From positions 254,667-318,666 of the forward strand of contig JBAYWG010000001.1 of NCBI GenBank assembly GCA_041674225.1: a DNA stretch of 64,000 nucleotides. Reading direction: 5' to 3'. This document shows positions 2,058-44,960 of this stretch, piece after piece; the first letter of the stretch is position 1, and every line of letters starts with the position of its first letter. The DNA comes from Minisyncoccota bacterium (lineage in GTDB: Bacteria > Patescibacteriota > Minisyncoccia > Phycocordibacterales > JAACPR01). Made by a program: the position numbers and the translations under genes. Below the pieces are notes generated by a model. It was not told the origin of the DNA. It searched no databases and saw nothing but the letters and a program-made list of their open reading frames with translations.

Positions 2058-2461
2058 GATATACATCTTCTATTTTATTATATGACTATTGAAGAAAAAA
2101 TGTGTTTTTGTGGTAAAAATTTTATGCATTGCAACCAGTTTGAATGTATCAAAGCGACTTTCAGCATTCCGAACGGGAGTTTGAGCAATTAGTACACCTC
2201 AGCTGAACGTGTTGCCACGCTTATACTTGGTGCCTATCAACCTAATCATCTCTTAGGGCTCTCAAAAGATTTCTAATCTTGAGGTAGGCTTCCTGCTTAG
2301 ATGCTTTCAGCAGTTATCCCTTCCCGACATAGCTACCCGACGATGCCATTGGCATGACAGCCGGTACACCAGAGGTCAGTCCACTCCGGTCCTCTCGTAC
2401 TAGGAGCAGCTCCTCTCAAAAATCAACGCCTACAGCGGATAGAGAACCAACCTGTCTCACG

Positions 2462-2790
2462 CACCTTGCTCACCTATTACTAGGTGGATTGGACTATACT
2501 TTCTTCCCTAAGGAAGGCTGACATGTAGTCTCTACGGGTACATATTGATATGTTTCCCTCGGAATCGTCCTCGCTTAATAGCGATAGGATTTTCCCGATA
2601 TCAGTCAACTAATTCTTGTGTATCACTACACAAAACCGCCGTGATGTTGGTTCTATATTTTGGGACAGAAAGACAAAAATAATTCTTCTCGATAACCCTC
2701 GAAGGGATTCAGATTGATTCACACTTCAAGTTTTTTGTTTCTATATGTTTGACATCTTGGTCAGCACACATTCACACTCTTCAAGTGTGA
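2462..2790 (-). ncRNA. putative ORF-less group I intron in 23S at E. coli position L2593 (I-CreI homing site)
   Basis: 329-nt insertion exactly between ...GGGUUCAGACCGU and CGUGAGACAGGU; 5' exon ends in U and intron ends in G; contains R-like (GAGACUAca) and S-like (GUAUAGUCC) group I core elements. Confidence 0.55.
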
Positions 2791-3451
2791 ACGGTCTGAA
2801 CCCAGCTCGCGTATCTTTTTAATTGGCGAACAGCCAAACCCTTGGGACCTTCTTCAGCCCCAGGATAAGATGAGCCGACATCGAGGTGCCGAACACCGCC
2901 GTCGCTATGGACGCTTAGGCGGTACCAGCCTGTTATCCCCAGGGTAACTTTTATCCGTTGAGCTTCCTCCGCATCTAAAGCGAAAGGTCGGATCGCTATG
3001 CTCCACTTTCGTGTCTGCTCGGCATGTACGCCTTGCAGTTAAGCTCTCTTATGCCATTACACTATCGGCACGGTTTCCATTCGCGCCTAGAGAACCTTTA
3101 GGCCCCTCCGTTACAATTTAGGAGGGTAGCGCCCCACTAAAACTACCCACCAGATACTGTTCCCCGACGTTTTTGCCGTCGAGGTTAGACTATATATTCT
3201 CAAAGGATGGTATTTCACTGTCGACTCCATATCAACCGAAATCAATACTTCAAAGTCTCCCATCTATTCTGCGCAGAGAGAACATATACCCAATATCAAG
3301 CTGCAGTAAAGCTCCTGGGGTCTTTCTGTCCTGCTGTAGGTAGCCGGCATCTTCACCGGCATCGCATTTTCACCGAGCAAGTCCCCGAGACAGTTTCCCA
3401 GTCGTTACGCCATTCGTGCGCGTCTGAACTTACCAGACAAGGAATTTCGCT

Positions 3452-3752
3452 CTCTCGTGTTAACTCTATGTCGCCATAGAGGACGGACTCTATTTTACTT
3501 GATTTTACTCAAGCACTAGCATTTGGTCTCTGAGGATTCTAAAAATATTTTCATAAATTTAGTCTTTCCTGCTGATTGTCCGCACTCTAAAATTTTCACT
3601 GATTAAATAAATTTAATCTAGTATTTAAAGATACTCGGAGTTTCCAGCATATGGCTAGTTTTAAAAAGGCAGTTACTATTCTTTGTAACATGCTGTCTAT
3701 CACACCTTTATAACAGCCCCAATTCTTGGTAACACAATAAATTATGCTACCA
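3452..3752 (-). ncRNA. putative ORF-less group I intron in 23S at E. coli position L1931
   Basis: 301-nt insertion between ...GGUCCUAAGGU and AGCGAAAUUCC; 5' exon ends in U and intron ends in G; contains R-like (GGAAAGACUAAAU) and S-like (AUAGAGUCC) elements. Confidence 0.55.
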
Positions 3753-3787
<35 letters not shown>

Positions 3788-5226
3788 CGGGGCTTATATC
3801 GGTCAGCACTAAACACTCTACGCACGATTATGATTCAAAAATTTGAATCATGCGCACAGTGTTTAGCACCGCCAATATTTAACCTTCCGGCATTGGTCAG
3901 GCGTCACCCCCTATACATCCTCTTACGAGTTAGCAGGGAGCTGTGTTTTTGATAAACAGTCGCCAGGAATCTTTAGCTGCGGCCCACTTGCGTGGGCAGA
4001 CCTTATACCTAGGGTACGGTCGCTGTTTTGCCGAGTTCCTTGGGGACCCCTCACTCGTTCGCCTTGGTCTTCTCGACCTGACTACCTGTGTCGGTTTGCG
4101 GTACGGTCTCATTATGCTTAACCTTAGAAGCTTTTCTTGGAAGGCTCTTCGCTTAAGTTTGATGGCCTAAGCCACCATTCAGCCGACACCGAGTCTAACA
4201 TGAGCGGATTTGCCTACTCAATAACTCTAGTGCTAGCAACGTAAATCCAGTAATACGCTTAAACTTGTGTCCTCCGTCCCTCCATCGGAACATAATGAGG
4301 TGATGGAATATTAACCATCTGTCCATCGGATTCGACTTTCGTCATCTCCTTAGGCCCGACTAACCCTTCGCTGATTAACATTGCAAAGGAAACCTTAGTC
4401 TTTCGGCGTGCAGGAATCTCACCTGCATTGCGGTTACTTGTGCCAACATTCTTACTTCCACACGCTCCACGATGGGTCACCCCTTTCGCTTCAACGCAGA
4501 GTGGAATACTCTCCTACCAATCCACATGTGCGAACACACGTAAATTCCTCGTTTTCGGTAATACACTTAGCCCCGATCATTTGTGGCGCGTCATCTCTGA
4601 GCGAGTGAGCTGTTACGCTATCTTTAAAGGATGGCTGCTTCTAAGCCAACCTCCTCGGTGTCTCTGAAATGTCACAACCTTTCTTGCACTTAGTGTATAT
4701 TTTGGGACCTTAAACGGAGATCTGGGCTGTTTCCCTTTTGACCGACGGAGCTTAGCCCCCGTGGTCTAACTGCCATGCTCTTAATCTCTGGTATTCGGAG
4801 TTTGATAGGTCTAACGAGATTGCTCCCTGTTTAGACCTTCCAGTGCTCTACCCCCAGAAGGAACACATGACGCCAACCCAAAAGCTGTTTCGGAGAGAAC
4901 CAGCTATTACCAAGCTCGATTAGCTTTTCACTTCCTACCACAAGTCATCCGAAGGAGTTGAACTACCTACCGGTTCGGGCCTCCATTTATGTTTCCATAA
5001 ACTTCACCCTGCTCATAGCAAGCTCGCTTGGTTTCGGGTCTTATACGTACTACTAACGCGCTATTCACACTCGGTTTCCCTACAGCTCCAACCGACTAAG
5101 GTCTTAGCTTGCAGTACATATAAACTCGTTGGCTCATTCTTCAATAGGCACACCGTCACGGATCAAGTCCGCTCCGATTCCTTGTAGGCATATGGTTTCA
5201 GGTCTATTTCAACGCCCTTGTCGGGC

Positions 5227-5268
<42 letters not shown>

Positions 5269-5933
5269 TTCTAATATATTTAGCCTTGCCAGTTAGTTCT
5301 GGCGGATTCACCCGAGGTATTCGTGTCTCGGGCTACTCAAGAACAAACACAAGAGAGATTAAATTTTTTCGTATACGGGACCATTACCCTCTGGGGTACA
5401 ACTTTCCAGTTGTTTCTACTAAAATTTAATTTTGTAACTCTCCTCGTGAAGAAGTGTTTGTCTTACAACCCCAATCATACAAGTACGATTGGTTTGGGCT
5501 TTTCCCCTTTCGCTCGCCGCTATTGAGGGAATCAATATTTTTTTCTATTCCTCCAGGTACTGAGATGTTTCACTTCCCTGGGTAAGCATTACAAGTCAAG
5601 CTCGTAACGACCTATAAAAGGTCGGGTTTCCCCATTCAGAAATCTCCGGATCAAAGGTTGCTAGGCACCTCCCCGAAGCTTATCGCAGCTTTACCACGTC
5701 TTTCATCGCTATTAGAAGCCTAGGCATCCACCATACGCCCTTAGCACTCCCGTCAGGAATGCTAAAAACCGCTTTTTCTACATTTTTTGGTTCAATGCAA
5801 TTTCTACCTACATTTTTTCTTCAATTGTCGAAGATCTCATCGAACCCTCTTCCGGTTCGGCCTCACCATTCTGAACCGAAGTTCAAAATGACGAGGTCGA
5901 ATCACAAGTCACTTTTGTCTATATTTTATTTTT

Positions 5934-41459: not shown

Positions 41460-44400
41460 TTATGAAACCTTTTTAATTTTTACAGCAATATCAATATCGC
41501 CCACTTTCACAGTTTCTCCGTCATTATCTTCAAACTTAATTTCTTTTGCACGAACTGATTTTTGAATTTCATTAACAAAATCCCCTACTTCTATTTTTGC
41601 AGAAGCCGAAACAATCATTGATATTTCATCATTTGGTTTGTAGCCAGATGTTTTTCGAAGTTGTTGAATAAATCTAATTAGCTCTCGAGCATTTCCTTCG
41701 AGTCGTAATTCTTCGGTAAGGTTTGTATCAAGAGACACTTCTGAGTCTTGATTTATATTAAACAAAACATCCTTAACATTTAATTCGTCTTTCAAAATTT
41801 CCAACAAATCATTTTTGTTTTTCAATTCTTCTTTTTTAAGAGTCACTGAAGCAAGTGGTTGTCGAACCTTGATTCCAACTTTTGTTCTTTCGTCTAGAGC
41901 TCGTGTCACTGTGTCTCGCAAAACTTGCATGCTAGAAATAATTTTCTCGTCTGACTTTTTAAGTTGTGGCCAAGAATCTAAATGGACACTTTCAAAATCA
42001 TTTTTTTCTCTCACTTTTTGATAAATATCTTCAGCAATAAAAGGTGTAAACGGAGCAATAAGTTTTGATAAGTTCTTCAAAACAAATTTTGTTGTTTGAG
42101 CTGCAAAAACAGCGTCTTCATTTTCTTCATCGAAGTTTTTAAATCTGTCTCGTGAACGACGAATATACCAAGTTGATAAATCATCCACAAAATCCATAAA
42201 CGGCCGAGTAGCTCTGTCTATTTCATAATTATCCAAACTCACTGTGACTTGATTTTGTAACTCAGAAAGCCGAGATAGAATCCATTGATCCAAAATGTTT
42301 GTACTTTCTTTTGCAACTTCAGAATTTTTAGAAAAATCTTTATACATCTCATAGAATGAAACTACATTATCTAATCTTGAAATCAGTTTGCTAGCGATTT
42401 CGGCAACTCCCTTTTCTGAAAAAGCCACGTCATCAGATTTCACTGCAGGTGAAGACATCAAGAAATATCTCAAAGAATCTGCGCCAGTTTTATTTAAAAC
42501 AGTGGATATATCAGGAAAATTATTTAGACTCTTCGACATTTTTTTACCATCTTCCGCCAACACAAGACCATTTACAACAACATTTTTATACGGCGCTCGT
42601 CCAAATAAAGCAGTATTCAAAACTAGCAATGAATAAAACCAACCACGAGTTTGATCTAAACCTTCAGCAATAAAATCCGCAGGATAATTTTTTGACTTTT
42701 TAAACAAACCAGAATCCGGACTAAATCTTTCTTTATTTGCAGGGTAATAATTTGAAGCATATGGAACAGAACCAGAATCCACCCAGGTATCAAAAACATC
42801 TGGAATTCTTTTCATCAATTTTCCGTTTTGCATGAAAGTCACATCATCAATATAAGGACGATGTAAATCAATTTCAAAATTATCATTTAGCGGCAATCTT
42901 GTTGGGATTAATTCCAAAGTTTTTCCTGTTGCAATAAAATCTTCTTTATCTTCTTTTATCGCGATTGTTTCTTCTTTATTTAAACCTCCGTTTGATGCAA
43001 CTAGCGCCCAAGTTGGATACTCATGAGTTACAATTATAATTCTTTTATTTTCATTTTGAGAATCAATTTCTTTTAGAAAATTCCCTACTCTTTTTTTCAA
43101 ATCTAAAACAGTTTCTGCACCATCGGCACATTTTTCAAATCTATCTTGTAGAGTTGGAAGATAATCTCGGTACTCAGAAATCGGTCGACCGTCAAAACCA
43201 GTTTGAATTTCTTTCAGTCTTTCATCAACAATAATTTTTTCTATCGGATATCCGATTTTTTCAGCAACAATTTCTGCTGTTTCTTTTGTCCGGAAAAGCG
43301 GAGAGCAATAAATCTCATCAAATTTTTCATCTGCAAATTTCTCCCCCACTCTCGCCACATCATCCTTTCCTTTTTGAGTTAAATGACTCGGAGAATTATT
43401 ACTGTCAGAAGTTCTGTTTTCCAAATTGTGATCTGCTTCACCATGACGCATTACCACAAATGTGTTTGTGCTTTTTGTTTTTTCTTTTAGATCATCTATT
43501 GAACCAATCACAGCAATCTCATTTCCATCTTCAGATTTCCATATTGGAATCGGTGTTCCCCAAAATCGTGCACGAGAAACAGACCAATCTTTCGCATCTT
43601 TCAACCAATTTCCAAAACGATTTTTTCCAACAAAATCCGGAGTCCAATTTACTTTTTCATTTTCTTTAACAATTTTATCTTTTATAGACGTCACCTTTAT
43701 GTACCAAGAAGACATCGCGTAATTTAAAAGTGGCGCATCTGTTCTCCAACAATGAGGATACGAGTGAGTATATTTTTTCTTATCAAACAAGAATCCGTTG
43801 TGTGCTAAATATTTCACAAACTCAATATCTGTTTGCATTGGATCTTCTTTTGGTTTTGCTTGAAGGCCAGCAAATTCTTTTACTTCTGGCTTTATAGTTC
43901 CATCAATTTTTACATGTTGTACAAAAGGTAGATTGTTTTCTTTCCCGAGGTTCAAATCGTCTTCACCAAATGCAGGAGCAATATGAACCACACCAGTTCC
44001 GTCTGTTGTTGTGACAAAATCACCATGATAAATTTTCCAACCATTTTCACGATTTTCTAAAGTTGCATCGTCAATATAACAATTGAAAGGTGGTGTGTAT
44101 TTCTTCCCTAACAATTCTTCTGCAGAAATTTCTGAAACCACTTCATGCTCTTTTCCTACAAAAACTTTTTCAACTAAATCTTTTGCTGCAATATAAATCG
44201 CATTTTCAAACTTAACTTTCACATATGAAAGATTTTTATTTATCGCAAGAGCGACATTTCCAGGAAGTGTCCACGGAGTTGTTGTCCAAGCCAAAACAAA
44301 AGTTCCCTTCTCTTCTGCCAATTCAAATTTCACTGTCGCAGATAAATCTGTGATGTCTTTGTATGCTTGATTTACTTCGAAGTTTGAAAGTGCGGTCTCA

Positions 44401-44960
44401 AGTAAAGGAGAAATGTGCATTGATTTGAAACCTTCATATGCCAAACCTTTTTGATGCAAGGTCTTCCACATCCACCAAACAGATTCCATATATTTTGAAT
44501 CCATTGTGATGTAGTTATCTTCAAAATCAACCCAACGACCAGTTCGTGGAATTATTTTTTTCCATTCATCAAGATATCGAAACACACTTGCTCGAGCAGC
44601 TTCGTTAAAATTTTTAACTCCAAAATTTTCTACATCTTGTTTTGTTTTAAGATTATTTTCTTTTTGAATTAAATTTTCAATCGGCAAACCATGTGTATCC
44701 CAACCCCATCGACGAGAAACTTTATAACCCGTCATTGTTTTGTATCTTGGGATTATATCTTTGATTGTTCCAGGTAGAATGTGTCCGTAGTGTGGCAACC
44801 CTGTTGCAAAAGGAGGACCATCATAAAAAACAAAATCACCTTTTGTGGATTCTCTTTCGATAGTCTTTTTGAAAATATTATTTTCTTCCCAAAAATTAAG
44901 GATTTTCTCTTCCCTTTGAGCTATTTGACTTTTATTAGTTTCGTCAGCTTCATTTGTCAT
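41460..44960 (-). CDS. ileS: isoleucyl-tRNA synthetase with an inserted histidine-phosphatase-like domain
   Basis: PPFATGLPHYGHIL (HIGH), KMSKSLNN, and editing/anticodon-binding regions; an extra segment of about 180 aa (residues about 500-680) carries RHGEADHN and VTHEY motifs. Confidence 0.9.
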   Translation of the reverse strand: MTNEADETNKSQIAQREEKILNFWEENNIFKKTIERESTKGDFVFYDGPPFATGLPHYGHILPGTIKDIIPRYKTMTGYKVSRRWGWDTHGLPIENLIQKENNLKTKQDVENFGVKNFNEAARASVFRYLDEWKKIIPRTGRWVDFEDNYITMDSKYMESVWWMWKTLHQKGLAYEGFKSMHISPLLETALSNFEVNQAYKDITDLSATVKFELAEEKGTFVLAWTTTPWTLPGNVALAINKNLSYVKVKFENAIYIAAKDLVEKVFVGKEHEVVSEISAEELLGKKYTPPFNCYIDDATLENRENGWKIYHGDFVTTTDGTGVVHIAPAFGEDDLNLGKENNLPFVQHVKIDGTIKPEVKEFAGLQAKPKEDPMQTDIEFVKYLAHNGFLFDKKKYTHSYPHCWRTDAPLLNYAMSSWYIKVTSIKDKIVKENEKVNWTPDFVGKNRFGNWLKDAKDWSVSRARFWGTPIPIWKSEDGNEIAVIGSIDDLKEKTKSTNTFVVMRHGEADHNLENRTSDSNNSPSHLTQKGKDDVARVGEKFADEKFDEIYCSPLFRTKETAEIVAEKIGYPIEKIIVDERLKEIQTGFDGRPISEYRDYLPTLQDRFEKCADGAETVLDLKKRVGNFLKEIDSQNENKRIIIVTHEYPTWALVASNGGLNKEETIAIKEDKEDFIATGKTLELIPTRLPLNDNFEIDLHRPYIDDVTFMQNGKLMKRIPDVFDTWVDSGSVPYASNYYPANKERFSPDSGLFKKSKNYPADFIAEGLDQTRGWFYSLLVLNTALFGRAPYKNVVVNGLVLAEDGKKMSKSLNNFPDISTVLNKTGADSLRYFLMSSPAVKSDDVAFSEKGVAEIASKLISRLDNVVSFYEMYKDFSKNSEVAKESTNILDQWILSRLSELQNQVTVSLDNYEIDRATRPFMDFVDDLSTWYIRRSRDRFKNFDEENEDAVFAAQTTKFVLKNLSKLIAPFTPFIAEDIYQKVREKNDFESVHLDSWPQLKKSDEKIISSMQVLRDTVTRALDERTKVGIKVRQPLASVTLKKEELKNKNDLLEILKDELNVKDVLFNINQDSEVSLDTNLTEELRLEGNARELIRFIQQLRKTSGYKPNDEISMIVSASAKIEVGDFVNEIQKSVRAKEIKFEDNDGETVKVGDIDIAVKIKKVS

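Follow-up and report, generated by a model that had tools for sequence, protein, structure and literature searches.

In the excerpts of Tsurumaki et al. 2024 (PMC11270868) on which we draw, 348 CPR 23S genes are described, with insertions in 82% of them, and 433 group I introns are counted in CPR 23S rRNA, of which 222 have no ORF. The recurrent sites are 1917, 1931, 1952, 2593, 2604 and 2657, and in the same excerpts the ORF-less and ORF-bearing forms at any one site are highly similar outside the ORF, while short IVS-like insertions sit at other sites. Outside the CPR, the bacterial introns at 1931 and 2593 surveyed by Haugen et al. 2007 all carry LAGLIDADG genes (PMC1995217). It has also been suggested that the rRNA introns of CPR bacteria assist or police ribosome assembly (PMC12641178). 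What does a further CPR 23S gene, interrupted at both of these sites, have in common with the described introns, and where does it depart from them? The gene considered here lies in a 64-kb stretch of DNA, referred to below as the window, and our reading, to which we give a probability of about 90%, is that its two insertions are intact introns of the group I ribozyme type, which carry no endonuclease gene and occupy two classic homing sites of 23S rRNA.

The 23S gene and its two insertions

A full-length 23S rRNA gene occupies positions 2170-5754 on the minus strand of the window, where the Rfam LSU model (RF02541) matches with 2384 bits, and a 5S rRNA match follows at 1946-2051. The 23S match spans 3585 nt against 2925 model positions, and two insertions together make up 630 of the 660 extra bases, so that there is no third large insertion in the gene. 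The first, at 3452-3752 (301 nt), appears as a 302-nt insertion in the alignment to the LSU model itself; the second lies at 2462-2790 (329 nt). Read on the minus strand, the 5' exon at the first site ends in ...GGUCCUAAGGU, the intron begins with UGGUAGC and ends in CACGAGAG, and the 3' exon begins with AGCGAAAUUCC, the corresponding sequences at the second site being ...GGGUUCAGACCGU, UCACACUU, GCAAGGUG and CGUGAGACAG. An exon U precedes each insertion and the last intron base is a G in each (G3452 and G2462). The boundaries cannot be shifted, because at both sites the intron and the 3' exon begin with different bases. Two landmarks, which we take to be m5U1939 and A2602, put the insertions after E. 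coli U1931 and U2593, respectively. A sequence-only reading that preceded this work had described a 23S gene of about 3.58 kb with insertions of 329 and 301 nt that follow the rule of an exon U and an intron-terminal G. Its coordinates and lengths are correct and the rule holds at both sites when the boundaries are read from the sequence, although the 5' exon that it gave for site 2593, AACGU, actually reads GACCGU. A separate observation concerns a long 23S hairpin, ggugcuaaacacugugcgcaug...cgugcguagaguguuuagugcug, at about 3800-3885 (minus strand) just upstream of helix 69, which looks longer than its E. coli equivalent and may hold most of the remaining 30 extra bases.

The intron-free middle exon of the 23S gene shares 83-85% identity with named 23S genes of Patescibacteria (UBA2100, Yonathbacteria, Nomurabacteria) and 70-76% with loci of Acidimicrobiaceae, Chloroflexota, cyanobacteria and others, which places the host in the Patescibacteria; the GC content is about 35%. 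With Rfam models no 16S rRNA gene is found in the 64-kb window, which includes 58 kb upstream of the 23S gene. The 23S-5S pair is thus unlinked from a 16S gene in this stretch, and the adjacent genes are glycosyltransferases. Elsewhere in the window, at 41460-44960 on the minus strand, an isoleucyl-tRNA synthetase-like ORF of 1166 aa has a His_Phos_1 domain (Pfam, residues 502-664) between the synthetase core and the anticodon-binding domain.

Since rRNA genes are, as a matter of general knowledge, a trouble spot for metagenome assemblers, the insertions might be thought to reflect chimeric joins between intron-containing and intron-less rRNA of different organisms. We regard this as extremely improbable, for the exon junctions are exact to the base, the exon identity is continuous on both sides, and the flanking gene is on record on three contigs, one of them of 234 kb; the contig itself is on record as ENA ERZ27247358 k141_245379 (234 kb). 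Moreover, the closest relative among the matches listed, L164 (Ga0222671_1000020), with 93% exon identity, carries homologous introns at both sites, one of 349 nt at 1931 and one of 638 nt at 2593 that is also ORF-less. The extra length of the latter is spread over the 5' module and the loops of P5, P8 and P9, and intron size in the lineage of L164 and the window varies twofold without coding capacity.

Group I cores without endonuclease genes

The assignment of both insertions to group I, as the sequence-only reading had proposed, is supported by covariance-model matches, by splice-site features, by the pairing of guides with exons and by family-wide covariation in the core. Against RF00028 the 1931 insertion scores 48.1 bits (E 8e-11) and the 2593 insertion 37.4 bits (E 1.2e-7), with alignments that span P3 through P9 in both. 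These matches are seen in E-value mode, and no intron is reported by Rfam at the gathering threshold, the gathering score of the model being 50 bits. That score is a curated cut-off and not a biological feature, and the long 5' modules of these introns lower the match because P1 is misaligned. The guide sequence lies 83 nt (1931) or 147 nt (2593) from the 5' splice site, as a result of which the Rfam alignment misplaces P1: it pairs internal look-alikes in both introns, an assignment that is wrong and that was replaced through comparison with relatives. Down to E 0.05, RF00028 finds no further group I intron elsewhere in the 64-kb window. For annotation this means that the 23S genes of the CPR group need intron-aware models, the Rfam default threshold missing both of these introns.

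Both introns of the window have all their core helices intact, and P7 has the canonical arrangement of bulged A and G:C pair. The guanosine-binding G:C pair beside the bulged A, found within G(A)GACUA/UAGUCC at 2593 and G(A)GAC/GUCC at 1931, is invariant in relatives. In the 2593 intron J6/7 and the 5' strand of P7, which form the R element with the bulged A and the G-binding pair, read GUAGAGACUA (2526-2535, minus strand, as for all intron features below) and are invariant in 40 relatives, while the 3' strand of P7, the S element, reads UAUAGUCC (2491-2498) and is placed by alignment, covariation and the window copy. In the 1931 intron J6/7 and the 5' strand of P7, with the R element, are UCAGAGACCA (3524-3533) and the 3' strand, with the S element, is AUAGAGUCC (3485-3493), both placed by RF00028, alignment and covariation. 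The earlier proposal of R-like and S-like elements that could form P7 stands for both introns, except that the R element at 1931 is CAGAGACCA (3524-3533) and the literal AGACUA lies in P6.

The relatives used for covariation were drawn from more than 200 genome and metagenome loci. In GTDB species genomes at least 120 loci match a pattern in which the 3' strand of P7 leads on to the intron-terminal G and the 3' exon of site 2593, and an equivalent site-1931 scan of metagenome contigs supplied the listed 1931 relatives. For the 2593 family 40 sequences were aligned, from the guide sequence through the 3' exon, on a group I structure drawn by hand, with the P3/P7 pseudoknot, P9.0 and P10 among its pairings. 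Pairing is found in 94.6% of the cells of this alignment, as compared with 34-43% once partners are shifted by 1-3 columns, and the observed pairing values are reached by 0 of 500 shuffles. Compensatory changes occur in 34 of the 50 pairs, including P3 (6/6), P9.0 (3/3) and all pairs of P2, P5, P8 and P9; P4, P7 and P10 are largely invariant and hence uninformative on covariation. For the 1931 family, where ORF-containing loops were removed by script from 37 sequences, the paired fraction of cells is 94%, that of slid controls 31-50%, and compensatory changes are seen in 23 of 33 pairs. Covariation thus supports the group I core, including the P3/P7 pseudoknot. The two checks that had been suggested along with the original claim, an RF00028 scan and a P1-P9 folding in which the guide pairs with the end of the 5' exon, both come out in its favour: the matches are significant, if under the gathering score, the core helices are intact, P7 is formed and the guides pair with the exons.

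Neither insertion has an ORF of 63 aa or more wholly inside it. The 63-aa ORF at 3596-3787 has its start in exon sequence and does not count as a gene of the intron, which bears out the earlier statement that no homing-endonuclease ORF is present, and neither intron encodes the homing endonuclease by which a mobile intron is recognised. In relatives that have such a gene its position is in P6. For the 2593 intron P6 is a 23-nt hairpin (2536-2558), recognised as the ORF position of its I-CreI-family relatives from the spacing and from the match of one of them, L035. The distance from the 3' strand of P4 to the 5' strand of P7 is 28 nt here versus 440-460 nt in the ORF-bearing relatives. The L035 protein matches I-CreI and I-MsoI over its full length (E 1e-20 to 1e-33), and the identification of 2593 as the I-CreI homing site made in the sequence-only reading is confirmed by such relatives, which encode I-CreI-family proteins. 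For the 1931 intron P6 lies at 3534-3569, where, on the evidence of the alignment and of the ORF's own matches, the LAGLIDADG ORF of L143 is found. This 756-nt intron at site 1931 aligns end to end with the window intron, save for the LAGLIDADG gene in its P6 loop, and the encoded protein matches I-OnuI/I-SmaMI-type structures. Both window introns are ORF-less forms of LAGLIDADG-type homing introns from which the gene is wholly gone; remnants of a degenerate endonuclease gene, considered for each, are found in neither, and the P6 loops are minimal. They would descend from LAGLIDADG-bearing mobile introns of the same families, the P6-loop gene having been lost or never gained, and with no gene in that loop they would now be inherited vertically or moved only with outside help. 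Among the matches listed, an ORF of at least 140 aa is present in 11 of 82 distinct 2593 introns, most being without one, and of the 82 introns at site 1931 for which both ends were located, 42 are no longer than 350 nt.

Splice-site guides and the 5' module

The guide of the 2593 intron (2633-2644; alignment, covariation and window copy) reads UCACG followed by GCGGUUU. The GCGGUUU part pairs with 5' exon AGACCGU to form P1, with a G.U pair at the splice site, and UCACG pairs with 3' exon CGUGA in a P10 of 5 bp that is kept in relatives; CACGGCGG of this guide is near-invariant in the 40 relatives. At 1931 the guide is GCCUU (3666-3670), homologous to the GCCUUAG of ORF-bearing relatives, and pairs with exon AAGGU in a 5-bp P1 with G opposite the splice-site U. 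A P10 of this intron would come to only about 2 bp in the window copy, and no firm assignment could be made for it or for a P9.0. A different arrangement is seen in very small introns at site 1931 (197-260 nt) from metagenome loci such as L022, L029, L123, L141 and L175, and also L162, where a guide containing GCUACCU sets A, and not the near-universal G, opposite the splice-site U. By a rough count this is so in about 30 of 39 such introns among the matches listed, unlike the window 1931 intron, which retains the canonical G.

From these features we infer that both introns would splice out of the 23S RNA. In the transcript each would fold into its P3-P9 core, the guide would pair with the last 3-7 exon bases (P1), and free guanosine would attack on the 3' side of the exon U. 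The intron-terminal G would then swap into the P7 pocket and the exons would be joined, restoring helix 93 at one site and the helix 69/70 junction at the other. A rival view is that the insertions are derived from group I introns and no longer splice, being either kept as expansion segments or cut out by nucleases without ligation to leave a fragmented 23S rRNA. Some observations point that way: both Rfam scores are under the threshold, the 1931 intron has a weak P10, bacteria are known to show fragmentation of the IVS type, and the bacterial intron at site 1931 of Simkania, described in 1999 by Everett and co-workers, reportedly remains unspliced. Yet both window copies preserve the core helices, the G-binding pair, the G.U splice-site pair and the terminal G intact, and the compensatory mode of change in the families implies that the ribozyme fold is under selection. 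The features of RNase III-type IVS are lacking, in that the sites are the intron sites 1931 and 2593 and the folds are group I cores. A retained insert of 300 nt in helix 93, by the peptidyl-transferase centre, or by helix 69 should also be harmful, and CPR rRNA insertions are reported to be removed from transcripts (Brown et al., as cited in the excerpts of PMC11270868). Loss of splicing is accordingly judged very unlikely, and the account preferred here is that of two introns that would still be removed with ligation of the exons.

What, then, occupies the stretch between the 5' splice site and so distant a guide? In both introns it is a 5' module, with a hairpin that starts from intron base 1 and is followed within a few bases by an exon-complementary element of 9-14 nt, the target of which lies upstream of the P1 exon strand and which is conserved in the relatives of both introns. 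In the 2593 intron this element, termed E (UCUGAAUCC, 2705-2713), pairs with 5' exon strand GGGUUCAGA (2795-2803, E. coli about 2581-2589), which is a strand in the central loop of the peptidyl-transferase centre; exon covariation, the MFE fold and a run-length test support both strands. The element of the 1931 intron, E' (UUGGGGCUGUUAUA, 3709-3722), is placed by 14 contiguous pairs, the MFE fold and its conservation in 37 relatives, and its partner, placed by the MFE fold and the run-length test, is 5' exon strand UAUAACGGUCCUAA (3756-3769, E. coli about 1915-1928), which covers the loop of helix 69 and its 3' strand.

The element of the 2593 family, GUCUGAAUCC, pairs with GGGUUCAGAC and tracks the variants of the exon, CAGAC occurring with GUCUG in 46 introns, CAAAC with GUUUG (17/17) and UAGAC with UCUAA (4/4), with four exceptions that are spurious pattern matches. 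There are thus two independent compensatory changes between exon and intron in this family. In the 1931 family the exon is invariant and covariation with E' is uninformative; here the element, UAGGACUGUUAUA, has a median of 13 contiguous exon pairs versus 6 in two controls. Of 77 distinct 1931 introns among the matches listed, 37 have the element, 28 have a 7-bp guide and none has both. An alternative partner for E' is the GUCC of the S element (4 bp), over which the exon is favoured on account of the 13-14-bp complementarity and of this mutual exclusivity with the 7-bp guide. MFE folds of the window sequences yield the same long exon-intron hairpins, with z = -3.3 (2593) and -5.3 (1931); in them the splice site falls within an internal loop or next to one. 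Along the RNA the upstream exon comes first, followed by the P1 exon strand, the element and the guide, such that the two pairings cross and form a pseudoknot, and they compete for 2-3 exon bases.

Two further points concern the 2593 module. The first 130 nt of the intron were at one stage read as a foreign nested insertion, BLAST homology being found only from nucleotide 130 onward. This was dropped, as relatives share the 5' architecture in a multiple alignment and the guide is distant throughout the family, 57-248 nt downstream of the 5' splice site. Separately, a 17-nt direct repeat, ACUUGAAG(A)GUGUGAAU, at 2770-2786 and 2716-2731, lies in the first hairpin and flanks about 38 nt. It is shared with the nearest relative, L164, and allows intron bases 1-8 to pair with either of two 3' partners. 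By its appearance it would go back to an old duplication or insertion within the intron.

The function of the 5' module is probably to tether the 5' exon, offsetting a short P1, or to prevent the exon from folding prematurely. It is plausible that, with a P1 of no more than 3-5 bp, the tether would hold the 5' exon once the first step is over, and the elements may in this way explain how the 5' exon is retained in introns with so short a P1. Other plausible roles would be to prevent the target strands from entering rRNA structure, native or not, before splicing, which would amount to a built-in check on rRNA folding or assembly order where ribosome-biogenesis factors are few, or to serve as a long guide for the site-specific reverse splicing of ORF-less introns. 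As a generalisation, which we put forward tentatively and hold to be doubtful, CPR-type rRNA introns may use a two-part, pseudoknotted exon-binding site, made of a guide of 3-7 bp and an upstream-exon element of 9-14 nt, that holds strands of the functional centres until splicing. An upstream-exon-binding element is not described in the literature found by a limited, non-exhaustive search, nor in the excerpts of Tsurumaki et al. 2024 (PMC11270868). If it is real and undescribed, the two-part site would add a structural variant to the group I introns now known. The elements give a testable handle, at the level of sequence, on the assembly role suggested in PMC12641178.

Relation to described introns

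The window introns share their host group and both of their sites with the ORF-less 23S introns of CPR bacteria (Brown et al. 2015; PMC11270868, excerpts), and their families show the same split between forms with a LAGLIDADG_1 ORF and shorter ORF-less forms. Set beside the introns described in those excerpts they differ in nothing of substance and are another instance of the kind. The sequence-only reading had thought ORF-less introns at these sites worth documenting, but the excerpts catalogue them in bulk for CPR bacteria, and among the matches listed the ORF-less state is that of the majority at 2593. The window introns are therefore correctly identified and real, of an already catalogued kind and ordinary for the CPR. 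By itself the finding matters little, as one more example among the hundreds counted, and of all its parts it is the upstream-exon-binding module alone that might merit closer study.

Comparison with introns outside the CPR brings out more differences. The 2593 intron shares its site with Cr.LSU of the Chlamydomonas reinhardtii chloroplast 23S rRNA, the host of I-CreI, and with the cyanobacterial 2593 introns of Synechococcus and Thermosynechococcus (Haugen et al. 2007, PMC1995217). Its ORF-bearing relatives encode single-motif LAGLIDADG proteins of the I-CreI family, as Cr.LSU does, whereas the window intron has no ORF. It also has no P7.1/P7.2, with only 3 nt between P7 and P3' where an extension of about 65 nt is present in the cyanobacterial introns, and its guide lies behind a 5' module, which the introns of Acidimicrobiaceae and cyanobacterial type among the matches listed do not have. 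The 1931 intron has the same site as those of Thermotoga, Simkania and Synechococcus (Haugen et al. 2007), and shares with site-1931 introns the core signature CAGAGACY ... AGAUAGAGUCC and a complex P5 region. Those three carry a LAGLIDADG gene and the window intron carries none. Similar ORF-bearing 1931 relatives from metagenomes have a 7-bp guide, GCCUUAG, close to the splice site, in place of which the window intron has a 5-bp P1 and an 80-nt 5' module with its 14-nt exon-complementary element.

For the exon-binding element itself, analogies are offered by the EBS2-IBS2 pairing of group II introns and by the P(-1) exon hairpin and the P1 extension of the Tetrahymena intron. All share a second duplex, beyond the short guide pairing, that involves sequence beside the 5' splice site. 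The source for the Tetrahymena analogy is Guo and Cech 2002, as cited in an excerpt of PMC3984707. EBS2, however, belongs to a different class of ribozyme, P(-1) is a pairing of exon with exon, and the Tetrahymena P1 extension is a pairing of intron bases immediately downstream of the splice site. In the window introns it is an intron element that pairs with the exon upstream of P1, in the pseudoknotted order exon a, exon b, E and guide.
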